A DNA stretch of 14,395 nt from Nitrospinota bacterium (GTDB lineage Bacteria > UBA8248), in assembly GCA_046581755.1 (NCBI GenBank), contig JAYGFR010000153.1, positions 1-14,395 on the forward strand. Reading direction: 5' to 3'. This document shows positions 1-9,998 of the stretch, in pieces (position 1 is the stretch's first letter; every line of letters begins with the position of its first letter). The notes under the pieces are model-generated. The model was not told the origin of the DNA and made no database searches. It saw only the letters and a list, made by a program, of their open reading frames with translations. Made by a program: the position numbers and the translations under genes.

Positions 1-162
1 CTCGAGGAAGGCGACTGGGGAGGCCAGGACGATGAGGGGCTCCTCGTTGCCATCCGCGCCGCCTCGGTGGATCGGCCCTATTTGCTCGAGATCAAGACGC
101 CCGAGTCCTCGAAGCGGGCCACCGCCGCATCGGTGAAGTACAAGAAGTACGGTGGGAAATAA
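1..162 (+). CDS. 3' end of a hypothetical protein (5'-truncated by the window edge)
   Basis: Frame 1 is open from base 1 to TAA 160-162 (LEEGDWGGQDDEGLLVAIRAASVDRPYLLEIKTPESSKRATAASVKYKKYGGK*), with GC-rich third positions. It ends 29 nt before the next same-strand gene. No family recognised. Confidence 0.7.
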   Translation, partial: LEEGDWGGQDDEGLLVAIRAASVDRPYLLEIKTPESSKRATAASVKYKKYGGK

Positions 163-191
163 TTTCCCGCCTATTTTAAGAGAGTGAGCCT

Positions 192-560
192 ATGACGACA
201 TTGGACCAGCGCCATCCGGTGGATCTGACTCTGGACAAAACCGCCCGGGAACTCCGGATTGAATGGGTGGACGGGAGCAAGAGCCGGTACGGGTTCGATT
301 ATCTGGCGGCGATGTGCCCTTGCGCGAACTGCCGCGAGAAGCGGATCGAGATGGCGAAAAACCCGCTTCATGTGGTGTCCGGCCCCCTGGGGCCGGCCGA
401 GGTGGGAAACGCCTCGATGGTGGGGCGCTATGCGTTGAGCATCACCTGGCAGGCGGGGTGCGTCTCGGGAATCTATTCGTTCGATTATCTCCGCTCCATC
501 GATCCCGCGAACGCGGAAAAGGATGAGGCTGGAGAAGCCGGTTCCCGGGAGGAGGGATGA
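192..560 (+). CDS. DUF971 / gamma-butyrobetaine hydroxylase-like N-terminal domain protein
   Basis: Family-typical motifs LRIEWVDG, CPCANC, VGRYALSITW and GIYSFDYLR; 122 aa. Confidence 0.9.
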   Translation: MTTLDQRHPVDLTLDKTARELRIEWVDGSKSRYGFDYLAAMCPCANCREKRIEMAKNPLHVVSGPLGPAEVGNASMVGRYALSITWQAGCVSGIYSFDYLRSIDPANAEKDEAGEAGSREEG

Positions 561-730
561 ACACCCGCTTGCGGGAAGAAGTGGAAACCTCCGGGAACGG
601 CAATACCGGAAACCGCCCGGAGCCCGTCCGGGATGAAGAGGAGTTTTGCCCAACCTGACTGAGCGGGGTTCTTTTCTTCTTGGTCAGGAAGGGATACCGC
701 TGGATCGCCAAAAAATTCTCAAGGGCCTAG
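557..730 (+). CDS. Candidate small selenoprotein with CxxU motif (57 aa, TGA 656-658 read as Sec)
   Basis: ATG 557-559 overlaps the DUF971 stop (ATGA) and follows GGAGGAGGG. Translation: MNTRLREEVETSGNGNTGNRPEPVRDEEEFCPT-U-LSGVLFFLVRKGYRWIAKKFSRA*. A SECIS-like hairpin follows the TGA, and the TAG at 728-730 is followed by an intrinsic terminator. Confidence 0.7.
663..700 (+). promoter_or_regulatory. Putative bacterial SECIS element
   Basis: Upper stem TTTCTTCTT/AGGAAGGGA (Watson-Crick plus G-U pairs) closes a GGTC loop at 682-685. The first loop G is 24 nt after the TGA. Basal stem GCGG/CCGC. The geometry resembles the E. coli fdhF-type SECIS (G-containing apical loop). Confidence 0.65.
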
Positions 731-745
731 CCTGAAACGCCTGTT

Positions 746-775
746 CCCCCGGCCGGAAATGGCCGGGGGCTTTTT
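746..775 (+). terminator. Rho-independent terminator
   Basis: CCCCCGGCCG-GAAA-TGGCCGGGGG hairpin followed by CTTTTTGTTGT. Confidence 0.85.
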
Positions 776-819
776 GTTGTGTTCGAACCGGATCCTTCAT
801 TTTAAAGGAGCCCCCCCTC

Positions 820-1206
820 ATGGACAAAGTCACCCTTCAGCCGTCCTCGCTCCGCGTGCCCTCGCTCCCCTACGTTCCGGGAACGAAGCGGGGGCCCTTC
901 GTATTCACCGCCGGCCAGGTGGGAGTGGACGGCGGGGGTAACCTCGTCGGCGAGGGGGACGTTGGGGCCCAGACCCGTCAGGTGCTCAAAAATCTCGCGG
1001 CCGTCCTTGAGGAGGGCGGCGCTTCCGCCGCCGATGTCATGAAAACGACAGTGTACCTTGCGGATATCGGCGATTTTGCGGCGATGAACGAGGCTTATGC
1101 CGAATTTTTCGGAGATGCCAAACCCGCGCGGACGACGGTTCAGGCGGCGCTCGCTTCGCCGAAATTTCTGGTGGAGATTGAGGCGGTGGCCGTGATCGAA
1201 GGGTAA
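820..1206 (+). CDS. RidA/YjgF/YER057c/UK114 family enamine/imine deaminase
   Basis: Motifs FTAGQVG, QTRQVLKNL, KTTVYLAD, MNEAYAEFF, PARTTV (catalytic Arg present) and LVEIEAVA; AAGGAG RBS. Confidence 0.93.
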   Translation: MDKVTLQPSSLRVPSLPYVPGTKRGPFVFTAGQVGVDGGGNLVGEGDVGAQTRQVLKNLAAVLEEGGASAADVMKTTVYLADIGDFAAMNEAYAEFFGDAKPARTTVQAALASPKFLVEIEAVAVIEG

Positions 1207-1229
1207 TGAGCGGCGGGTTGGCCGGGGCG

Positions 1230-1895
1230 TCATTCCAGTGTGATTTTTTGCACCCAGCTTCGGCCCTGGTAGCGCGCCTCGATTTTCATGTCACGAAGGA
1301 TGGTGAAGAAGATTCGGAGCCGGACGAGGTCCTCTCCGCTGAAGCGGATGGCGCCGCCGGGGCCGACCGGATATTTCTTGGACGAGCGGTTGCGGAGAAA
1401 TGTGACGCGAATCGTCCCGCCCGGCGGAACGGCTCCGCCCTTGCCGCAGGATTTTCTCCGCACGGTTTTCCAGGGACCCTTGATTTTCCGGCCCGTCGGG
1501 CGGCGGCCGGTCACGCTACGTCCTCTGCAGTTGGACAAATCGTTGCCGGGGCTGCCGGTGATCAAGTAGCCTATCTCGGCGAATTTCGTGATTCCGCAGC
1601 CGATACCCTGTGTTGCGGCGATGGCGCCCGATTGCGTGCTCACCTCGACTTCCCTGAAAGTCCGCCGCTCCTGCACCGGGCAAAGGGCCACCTTCCGGAG
1701 AAGGGCGAGGCCCCCTCCCTTTCCGTCGAGGCGGTAGCCTTCGATGTCCGGTCCCAGGGTCCGGCTGTCCACCCGGATGACACCGCCCTTGACGGTTTTC
1801 ACTGAGCCGCAGCCCGCGGACAGGGCCAGCAGGGCCAGCGCGGACAAAAAACAGGGCGCGGCCAGTTTGTGGCCGCAGAATAATATCTCTCTCAT
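1230..1895 (-). CDS. Hypothetical lipoprotein, Arg/Lys-rich
   Basis: Hydrophobic N-terminus ending in a lipobox-like LSAG|C. The mature region has four further Cys and is very basic. No family recognised. Confidence 0.7.
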   Translation of the reverse strand: MREILFCGHKLAAPCFLSALALLALSAGCGSVKTVKGGVIRVDSRTLGPDIEGYRLDGKGGGLALLRKVALCPVQERRTFREVEVSTQSGAIAATQGIGCGITKFAEIGYLITGSPGNDLSNCRGRSVTGRRPTGRKIKGPWKTVRRKSCGKGGAVPPGGTIRVTFLRNRSSKKYPVGPGGAIRFSGEDLVRLRIFFTILRDMKIEARYQGRSWVQKITLE

Positions 1896-5643: not shown

Positions 5644-6039
5644 TCAGGGGAGGGGGACAATCGCTTCGATTTCCACCAAAAATTCGGGATTGGCGAGGCT
5701 TGAGATCACCAAAAACGTATTTGCGGGTGGGTCGTCACCAAAAAATTCCTTTCGCGCCTCGCCGACCGGGCCGCGTGCGTCGAGGCTTGTGACAAAAAAG
5801 GTGGTCTTGGCGATGTCGCTCATGTTGCCGCCCGCCTCCTCGACCACCCGGCGCATGTTTTCGAGCACCTGGCGGGTCTGCCCTCCGGCGTCGCCGGGGG
5901 AGGCGACGTTGCCGTTCTCGTCGAGGGGGACCTGGCCCGCGACATAAAGCGTTCTCCCCGCCTCGACGATGACGCCGTGAGAATAATGGCCTCCCGGCGG
6001 GGCCAACCCCGCGGGCTGGTTGACGATCGATCTCTTCAT
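5644..6039 (-). CDS. Rid (YjgF/YER057c/UK114) family protein lacking the canonical catalytic Arg
   Basis: Motifs GHYSHG, LYVAGQV, QTRQVLENM and LVEIEAI; PPANT stands where canonical RidA has PPAR. Confidence 0.9.
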   Translation of the reverse strand: MKRSIVNQPAGLAPPGGHYSHGVIVEAGRTLYVAGQVPLDENGNVASPGDAGGQTRQVLENMRRVVEEAGGNMSDIAKTTFFVTSLDARGPVGEARKEFFGDDPPANTFLVISSLANPEFLVEIEAIVPLP

Positions 6040-8990: not shown

Positions 8991-9998
8991 CTAGCCCAAA
9001 AACCCCGCCTTTTCGAGGACGCCGGGGTTGGCCACGTCCCCCGGCCTCCGCCCGGACAGACAATCCACGGTCGCCCGGACCGCATGGCGGACGCAGTTCT
9101 TGCAGGCGTCCTCGCCCACCCCCGCCGCGTGCGGGGTGACGACGACGTTGTCCAGGGCGAATAGGGGATGGGAGGCGTCGGGCGGCTCGTCGGGGAATAC
9201 GTCGATCCCGGCCCCACGGATCCCGCCGGATGAGAGAGCATCCGCCAGCGCGTCGATATCCACGACAGGCCCCCGCGAGGTGTTGAACACAAAGGCGGTG
9301 GGCTTCATGAGTCTCAGCAGGGCGCGGTTGATGATGCCTCGCGTGTCGGGCGTCAGCGGGACATGGCACGAAATATAGTCGGCCCGGCTCACGACCTCTT
9401 CGAGCGGATGGAAATAGACGCCCACCTCGGCGGCGAACCGCTCGTCCTGGACGATGTTGCAGGCGAGGATTTCCATCCCGAAGGCGGCGGCGCGGCGGGC
9501 GACCTGCTTTCCGATGTTTCCGAGACCGATGAGGCCGAGGGTCCTGCCATTGAGGGCAGCCGCGGGGAGGCGGAGGCTGGCCCACTCTCCGGCGCGGATG
9601 CCCTGGTTCGACAGGGGAATTCTCCGGGCGGCGGCGAGGATGAGGCCGAAAGTGTGTTCGGCCACCGACTGGGCGTTCTGGCCGGCGGCGTGGGTGACGA
9701 CGATGCCGTTCTCGGTGGCGGCGTCAATATCGATGGCGTTCAGGCCCACGCCCGTTCGCGCGATGATTTTCAGGTCGGAGGCGGCGGCCATGACGCGGGC
9801 CGTGTATAGGTCTCCGCTCGGCAGGGTGGCGACGACGCCGGGGATTCCCTCGAGCACCTCCTCTTCGCTGAGATGGACCCCCCGGACGTCCAGATTGATT
9901 TCCAGTTCCGCCTCCTCCTCCAGCGGGCGGAGTAGGCGCATCGGGTCATCCAGGCCCCCGAGCCATGTCGTGGTAATCCATGCAATGCCTTTGGCCAC
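8991..9998 (-). CDS. D-isomer-specific 2-hydroxyacid dehydrogenase (phosphoglycerate/glyoxylate reductase-like)
   Basis: ARTGVG, VAEH, GLIGLGNIG Rossmann motif, NTSRG, DVFPDEP and TPHAAG (Arg/Glu/His catalytic residues). GTG start after GAGGGG. Confidence 0.93.
   Translation of the reverse strand: MAKGIAWITTTWLGGLDDPMRLLRPLEEEAELEINLDVRGVHLSEEEVLEGIPGVVATLPSGDLYTARVMAAASDLKIIARTGVGLNAIDIDAATENGIVVTHAAGQNAQSVAEHTFGLILAAARRIPLSNQGIRAGEWASLRLPAAALNGRTLGLIGLGNIGKQVARRAAAFGMEILACNIVQDERFAAEVGVYFHPLEEVVSRADYISCHVPLTPDTRGIINRALLRLMKPTAFVFNTSRGPVVDIDALADALSSGGIRGAGIDVFPDEPPDASHPLFALDNVVVTPHAAGVGEDACKNCVRHAVRATVDCLSGRRPGDVANPGVLEKAGFLG

Follow-up and report, generated by a model that had tools for sequence, protein, structure and literature searches.

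A conserved gene with an in-frame TGA behind DUF971 that very likely encodes a small selenoprotein of an undescribed family

Introduction

Prokaryotic selenoproteins made up a catalogue of 119 families in a 2026 review (PMC13188914), and the consensus bacterial hairpin (bSECIS) given there has a loop that starts with G and then G or U and stands 16–37 nt past the UGA (PMC13188914, Fig. 2 legend). This catalogue has been built largely by pairing selenocysteine (Sec) and cysteine forms and by extending annotated proteins, and a gene of fewer than 60 residues without a cysteine twin evades both routes. As stated in the account of deep-Sep, all known selenoproteins seem to have cysteine homologues, and the filter of that pipeline discards candidates that have none (PMC12013277). 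A cysteine homologue is the usual criterion of search pipelines, and it lies outside the biochemical definition of a selenoprotein. DUF971, the domain beside which our locus is found, has a function that has been described as elusive (PMC7980591).

Here we analyze a window of 14,395 nucleotides, meaning the whole stretch of DNA under study (contig JAYGFR010000153.1 of assembly GCA_046581755.1, forward strand), from a Nitrospinota bacterium placed in UBA8248 by GTDB. An initial annotation made from the letters had proposed a hidden selenocysteine microprotein behind a DUF971 gene. We conclude that the frame at 557–730 is a real conserved gene, and that it very likely encodes a 57-residue selenoprotein of an undescribed family.

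Layout of the gene and authenticity of the TGA

The features of the locus are collected in Table 1. The letters bear out what had been read from them initially: a strong ribosome-binding site (GGAGGAGG at 548) upstream of ATG 557, an ATGA overlap of the start (557–559) with the DUF971 stop TGA (558–560), a hidden frame of 57 residues with C31-P-T-U34 at TGA 656–658 and its end at TAG 728–730, a GGTC loop that starts at 682, the 24th base past the TGA, and, only beyond the TAG, a terminator-like hairpin with a T run at 746–779. The coupling through ATGA holds at the source locus but fails as a general trait, with start and stop overlapping in 6 of 30 loci; in 23 of 30 the start lies 2–12 nt past the DUF971 stop, and in all 30 the start codon falls between −4 and +39 nt relative to that stop. 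A Shine-Dalgarno-like word of at least four bases precedes the start in 28 of 30 loci, and ATG, GTG, and TTG interchange at one start site in the largest genus. Complete products have 46–71 residues, of which 21–34 lie past the Sec.

Table 1. Positions of features at the microprotein locus, numbered from the first letter of the window.
Feature	Position	Strand	Remarks
DsbA-like (PF01323) oxidoreductase gene, 3' end	1..162	+	cut by the contig start; last 53 codons
DUF971 / GBBH-like_N gene, 122 aa	192..560	+	PF06155 E 3e-19; PDB 3luu E 5e-11
Shine-Dalgarno-like GGAGGAGG	548..555	+	within the DUF971 3' end
Microprotein gene	557..730	+	57 aa if TGA 656–658 is read as Sec
C-P-T-U motif (Cys31, Sec34)	647..658	+	Cys in 30/30 (TGC and TGT both used), TGA in 30/30
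Region coding the single predicted helix (residues 32–56)	650..724	+	hydrophobic, then amphipathic and basic; AlphaFold2
SECIS-like hairpin, 9-bp stem, GGUC loop 682–685	673..694	+	lower stem may reach 662–701
Intrinsic-terminator-like hairpin closing the three-gene unit	746..779	+	similar element at most 120 nt past the stop in 9/29 loci

The TGA is no assembly error, since contigs from three RNA-labelled public runs (three studies) cross it with zero differing letters and the metagenome locus L146 encodes an identical microprotein. These RNA-labelled runs cover the gene, and one of them spans 23 of 30 whole-window bins at similar low depth; because DNA carry-over is possible, the coverage is no evidence of expression. 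Two contigs stop at 733 and 741, ahead of the terminator, which is a weak hint at most.

Partners and neighbors

The gene ahead of DUF971 is, as read from its relatives, a DsbA-like selenoprotein gene, so that the operon as predicted holds two Sec genes; the selenoprotein nature of this gene had been missed in the initial annotation. Its 5' part is missing from the source assembly, and the gene is whole in the metagenome contig L146:2045-2695 (−). In relatives, it opens with CYV-TGA-P, followed about 20 nt on by a SECIS-like hairpin with a G loop, and such a gene lies upstream of DUF971 in 15 of 18 fetched regions, the other three belonging to a family in which the DsbA-like gene sits elsewhere. 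Cysteine homologues of the DsbA-like protein exist, with a DFLCP motif, and its nearest solved relative is PDB 7dk9 (E 1.5e-14); no NCBIfam model reaches its cut-off on this gene. The catalogued DsbA-like selenoprotein form 2 shares the PF01323 domain and the Sec at the attacking Cys of the DFLCP-type motif, but it has DxxUP, whereas the upstream gene has CxxUP in every copy read. The CxxU-P motif (CYVUP or CYIUP) is phylum-wide (window 1–162, L146, L149–L153, L157–L160) and differs from both catalogued DsbA-like forms (UxxC and DxxUP); database copies begin past the UGA. A second DsbA-like gene with a TGA, at L163 (G031:C60:5365-5886), reads D-Y-C-U-P, with Cys immediately before Sec.

The DsbA-like gene of the most distant family has retained the TGA but does not adjoin DUF971, and no microprotein was found in that family; the microprotein therefore occurs only where the DsbA-like gene and DUF971 are linked. 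Four genomes of this most distant family (L150, L151, L158, and L160) carry a conserved, Cys-free ORF of ~33 aa about 140–240 nt downstream of the DsbA-like gene, which has one hydrophobic stretch and a basic end and would be a small membrane protein in a similar place.

The DUF971 protein has the motif CPCAxC and a fourth Cys, at a position occupied by His in other families of the phylum. In the main family (L007–L036), this Cys-for-His lies ahead of a GIY motif in the C-terminal half, and a second CPCxxC at the end is kept in three of six DUF971 copies outside the main family. The source genome has a second DUF971 copy at C297:206-526 with no CxxU peptide behind it; the gene that follows there is Rieske-type ferredoxin-like, as read by eye. 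Common neighbors of the unit are genes for sulfite/nitrite reductase, siroheme synthesis, DUF4202, and aconitase-type proteins, and the gene directly downstream of the microprotein differs from genus to genus. In the window, a RidA/YjgF-family gene (PF01042) at 820–1206 stands directly past the terminator, a position that is kept within the genus only, and a second RidA-like gene (by eye) lies at 5644–6039 (−). In the largest genus, the microprotein gene faces convergent TauE/SafE-like genes of half length (120 aa) (L114:8482-8841 and 9456-9815, twice in one genome; L115:5152-5511; L130:6052-6411). Two further ideas were set aside: a fusion of DUF971 and the microprotein by double read-through, because DUF971 ends with TAG or TAA in many loci and the offset between the two frames is not constant, and attenuation of the next gene as the main role, because the next gene varies.

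Conservation across the phylum and selection past the TGA

A profile built from 17 members was searched in 51 genomes of the phylum, the source genome included. It matches 33 of the 51, and each best match carries the TGA; by family, there are matches in 31 of 41 other genomes of the source's own family, in the one genome of a sister family, and in none of the one and seven genomes of two further families. A further weak match (E 0.008), which has no stop, was taken as chance. In all 30 fetched loci, C-x-x-TGA with the hairpin lies within 600 nt past DUF971, and of the remaining three carriers two have CxxU and one has Trp replacing the Cys, which means that CxxU is kept in 32 of 33 carriers, while DUF971 precedes the gene in all 33. 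These carriers are kin, 22 of the 33 coming from one genus, and the counts overstate the number of independent events. As far as these genomes tell, the family is so far confined to two families of one uncultured phylum. The locus L128:7450-7620 (G048) reads W-P-T-U instead of C-P-T-U and has one additional codon ahead of the hairpin, which may be decay, a variant, or a sequencing error.

The final stop varies among the 30 loci (TAG in 15, TGA in 9, TAA in 5, with one locus truncated at the end of its contig), while the Sec codon is TGA in all 30, and neither TAA nor TAG stands at its position in any homologue examined. DUF971 occurs without a microprotein behind it in eight genomes, with one further genome cut by a contig end, and the DsbA-like and DUF971 partners can thus work without the microprotein.

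Coding conservation continues past the TGA, which the initial annotation had named as a point on which its reading could fall. From 143 close pairs of the 30-row alignment, which are not independent of one another, pN/pS over all 20 codons past the TGA is 0.63, the lowest of six frames; this value is modest because stem codons with frozen silent sites are pooled in. Codons outside the stem give a pN/pS of 0.37, compared with 1.00 and 1.76 for the shifted frames, and from the Trp onward the in-frame value falls to 0.23 (0.23–0.43 beyond the hairpin). The four codons up to the TGA, on the C-P-T side, have a pN/pS of 0.04, and the sole gap in the alignment is of 3 nt. Within the stem (codons +6 to +10), silent sites hardly change at all (pS 0.004), a pattern that we read as the mark of an RNA element overlaid on the reading frame.

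The SECIS-like hairpin and the selenocysteine machinery

The lowest-energy fold of the whole stretch past the UGA has an 8-nt loop (−18.5 kcal/mol, z −2.6). The 9-bp register with the GGUC loop lies 3.8 kcal/mol above it, and is lowest only if the first 12 nt past the UGA are omitted, as under ribosome cover. Our SECIS test was a script of our own for the consensus of PMC13188914 (G[G/U] loop, 16–37 nt, −7.5 kcal/mol or lower), used in place of bSECISearch; it passes 30 of 30 members, a result that is weak alone because 111 of 300 TGA ends of long ORFs also pass. If the hairpin must come within 2 kcal/mol of the best fold, 19 of 30 members and 46 of 300 ordinary TGA ends pass. Covariation was followed in 12 rows, 11 from outside the largest genus and one from within, where 88.5% of the cells of an 8-pair stem are paired and five of the eight pairs have two-sided changes, all slid controls being lower; one genome, which itself folds best in another register, contributes three of the nine two-sided cells. 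The hairpin on which the initial reading depended is conserved, with compensatory changes in these 12 rows.

The best evidence that the hairpin is a SECIS comes from its loop match to AhpD-type genes of the same genome. Eleven PF02627 (AhpD/CMD-type) matches of the source genome carry one TGA; in three of them the best hairpin has a GGUC loop 21 nt past the UGA, and another has a CGUG loop, as do the microprotein hairpins of the largest genus. Of 1576 TGA ends of long ORFs, none is followed by a GGUC hairpin of at least five pairs, and of 109,854 TGA triplets 105 are, a control that was chosen only once the loop had been seen; 11 of the 105 have a Cys three codons before (2.8 expected), and these include six AhpD-like genes and the microprotein. 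Formate dehydrogenase was of no help as a control within the source genome, with no match over the cut-off and no TGA in two partial matches, and Rfam gave nothing near a gathering score in window positions 1–1500. The AhpD/CMD-type genes with TGA lie on contigs C246, C66, C88, C213, C247, C284, C231, C225, C42, C75, and C215, with the in-frame TGA at CxxU-like sites, one of which has N for the first Cys. Together with three further AhpD look-alikes on C94, C110, and C398, they form a large paralogous selenoprotein set.

The initial annotation had asked for selA, selB, selC, and selD, and the source genome (G000) has adjacent selA and selB, a selD with its own single in-frame TGA, and tRNA-Sec. 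In the phylum, selA is present in 49 of 51 genomes and tRNA-Sec is over the cut-off in 48 of 51. The misses are all microprotein carriers with fragmented assemblies, two for selA (67% and 79% complete) and three for tRNA-Sec (67%, 88%, and 90% complete), one 67%-complete carrier having neither match. Because the Sec trait is phylum-wide, presence or absence of the microprotein cannot be correlated with it. Three UBA8248 genomes are in the BSepDB top ten, with 48–54 selenoprotein genes each (PMC13326102).

Search for homologues

The cysteine homologues that had been hoped for were not found. A profile of 48–50 positions, of limited reach, gave none among 1.84 billion representatives or 5.8 billion clustered proteins, and there was none in two pattern scans, in plasmids, in phages, or in 129 genomes of four other phyla (0 of 120, 0 of 1, 0 of 2, and 0 of 6 genomes with a profile match). 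Cys/Sec-pair pipelines would therefore drop the microprotein. At E up to 0.001, the protein databases returned seven matches, one real (P0001) and six long proteins. P0001 is the microprotein mis-read with Trp at the UGA, and it is the sole member among about 15 billion predicted proteins. The six long proteins were rejected as members, the four of them that were read being repeats, as were 18 longer proteins at E up to 1, which cover 12–39% of the query and of which the two read are CPxC-repeat proteins.

The pattern scans used a degenerate DNA pattern that permits TGA or Cys codons and was built from non-g8 members only. In GTDB genomes, it gave 15 loci, nine of them family members, all with TGA, and six others rejected as having no DUF971 or no plausible frame; in metagenomes, it gave 17 loci, eight of them members and nine others, and plasmids and phages had no match.

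Among known models, nothing in Pfam or NCBIfam is above cut-off for the window protein or for 28 members, and NCBIfam 20.0 gives no score below E 0.067 for any of the 28; the weak, sub-threshold Pfam matches of some members are zinc ribbons. The best hit of a PDB sequence search with the microprotein has E 0.91. By domain or model, the microprotein belongs with none of the 119 families listed in PMC13188914 (Table 1), and other published candidate lists could contain the family. A full-text literature search found no paper that joins a selenoprotein to DUF971 or to Tectomicrobia, and one on small amphipathic selenoproteins led to human SELENOK only, in the text that it reached (10.1101/2021.05.15.444318).

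Predicted shape and membrane association

AlphaFold2, run with 28 sequences and with Sec modelled as Cys, predicts one helix at residues 32–56 (pLDDT 77–91), a head below 55, a mean of 65, and no strand. This agrees with the disordered N-terminus of the initial annotation, whose acidic head does not hold as a family trait, as the head is conserved in neither sequence, length, nor charge. In the tail, the Trp is near-invariant (29 of 30), the net charge past the Sec is +3 to +7 in 29 complete members, and the hydrophobic moment is 0.43–1.00. The proposed membrane helix stands in part: a helix that is hydrophobic and then basic is predicted, but the tail lacks the length and hydrophobicity of a transmembrane anchor, the best 19-residue Kyte-Doolittle mean being 0.83–1.47, short of the ~19 strongly hydrophobic residues of a single-pass segment. 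These values fit an amphipathic helix lying on the surface, and not a transmembrane one. The hairpin imposes part of the pattern, in that its pyrimidine arm codes Leu/Phe and its purine arm Lys/Gly, while the Trp and the later basic and hydrophobic residues lie past the stem. Going by the model, the head is probably disordered and residues 32–56 probably form a helix in the membrane surface, with the CxxU at its N-terminal end. Redox sites of the thioredoxin and AhpD types are arranged in this way, at the start of a helix.

Proposed function and alternative explanations

The function proposed here is predicted from sequence and model, for one uncultured phylum. Very likely, SelB binds the hairpin and Sec is inserted at the in-frame UGA. 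The product would be a protein of 46–71 residues on the inner face of the membrane, held there by one amphipathic helix, in which Cys31 and Sec34 would cycle between a selenenyl-sulfide and a reduced pair. The oxidized CxxU might be re-reduced through the DsbA-like partner, and the reduced CxxU might keep thiols near the membrane reduced, for example the four metal-binding Cys of DUF971. Under low selenium, translation would stop at the UGA and leave a 33-residue head without the membrane helix, switching the function off. We consider the whole account (UGA read as Sec, a CxxU peptide at the membrane surface, and a redox relay for the DsbA-like protein and DUF971) to be evenly balanced between right and wrong, and the relay at the membrane surface with the DsbA-like selenoprotein, taken by itself, to be a tentative suggestion that falls a little short of that. 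A more far-reaching version has a Sec-only origin in one bacterial order, without a cysteine ancestor, a disordered micro-redoxin with CxxU at the membrane surface that relays with the CxxU-P DsbA-like enzyme, as two selenoproteins, to serve DUF971, and a membrane helix that is made only if selenium permits read-through; this is possible, though doubtful. If true, a hidden class of Sec-only microproteins, all dropped by searches for Cys/Sec pairs, would have its first example here.

An unlikely but coherent alternative keeps the selenoprotein and takes the CxxU as a metal or Fe-S ligand pair that loads, holds, or passes the metal of DUF971 at the membrane. The gene always stands directly behind DUF971; this domain has a CxCxxC motif and occurs as a fusion with HCF101, an Fe-S carrier (PMC7980591). 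The neighborhood often includes aconitase-type, siroheme, and sulfite/nitrite reductase genes, and the zinc ribbons among the sub-threshold matches point the same way. However, a single CxxU supplies just two ligands and the main-family DUF971 has four Cys of its own, while the second DUF971 copy of the source genome does without such a peptide and the other gene of the unit encodes a thioredoxin-fold protein.

We regard as improbable that the microprotein is a selenium sensor or store, in which read-through itself would matter (as cover of the mRNA end, a Se-dependent membrane tag, or a Sec sink) and not catalysis. Strong selection at the protein level on C-P-T ahead of the Sec (pN/pS 0.04) argues against it, as does the lack of a fixed attenuation target, the downstream gene differing between genera. 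A head free to vary, a simple tail, the last place ahead of a terminator in 9 of 29 loci, and the loss of the Cys in one genome where TGA and tail persist would all suit it, and bacteria with related genomes rank among the richest in selenoproteins (PMC13326102, Table 2).

That the UGA is an ordinary stop, leaving a 33-residue peptide that ends in C-P-T with a conserved non-coding RNA element behind it, is very improbable. It agrees with the failure to find a Cys homologue, with a hairpin that is a real RNA structure, and with an overall pN/pS of just 0.63 over the 20 codons past the TGA. Yet the TGA is never TAA or TAG, though both neighboring stops vary, the sole gap is of 3 nt, pN/pS is 0.23–0.43 past the hairpin, and loop and spacing match the SECIS of known-type selenoprotein genes in the same genome. 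Least probable of all is a precursor of a modified or secreted peptide (a leader with a Sec-containing core), which the small size, variable head, cationic amphipathic tail, and listing of selenobacteriocins as a class (PMC13188914, Table 1) may bring to mind, but there is no match to TIGR04081 or any other NCBIfam model, no conserved modifying enzyme, peptidase, or exporter in the neighborhoods read, and no conservation of the head.

If the microprotein is real, the selenoproteomes of Sec-rich lineages are systematically undercounted, and Sec need not always come from replacing Cys in an old protein. It would also link DUF971 to a thiol/selenol redox operon of three small proteins.

Comparison with known systems

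With bacterial genes that combine a UGA and a bSECIS, the microprotein shares the UGA, a G[G/U] loop 16–37 nt on, and SelA, SelB, SelD, and tRNA-Sec; it differs in having no known domain and no cysteine homologue that we could find. The nearest in appearance are the AhpD/CMD-like CxxU selenoproteins (PF02627, TIGR01926, NF041047, NF041238), which also have a CxxU with Sec second, its place at a helix start, and the GGUC loop. Their multi-helix CMD fold with a His past the motif is not what we find in the microprotein, which has one predicted helix, no such His, a basic amphipathic tail, and no profile match. In contrast to the thioredoxin- and glutaredoxin-fold selenoproteins with their beta-sheet core, its model has no strand, and here too there is no profile match.

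Shortness, and being easily missed, are shared with the small catalogued selenoproteins CC/Se (NF041239), dual CXXC (NF041197), KCU-star/DUF466 (NF033934), UXX-star (NF041114, NF041211), Tso, and TIGR04081, several of which lie near more than one Sec gene in the catalogue (PMC13188914). None of 28 members matches these families at E up to 1, in a scan of NCBIfam 20.0 as a whole, and their motifs differ from that of the microprotein except for CC/Se, which is CxxU and whose model gave no match. From its sequence, the microprotein thus resembles a CxxU redox selenoprotein yet belongs to no catalogued family, and is apparently undescribed.

The eukaryotic SELENOK and SELENOS are likewise small, largely disordered, and membrane-bound, with no catalytic fold. 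Their helix is a true transmembrane one close to the N-terminus, and their Sec lies close to the C-terminus, whereas in the microprotein the Sec would precede a surface helix, and the likeness is drawn here as an analogy and not as a claim of homology.
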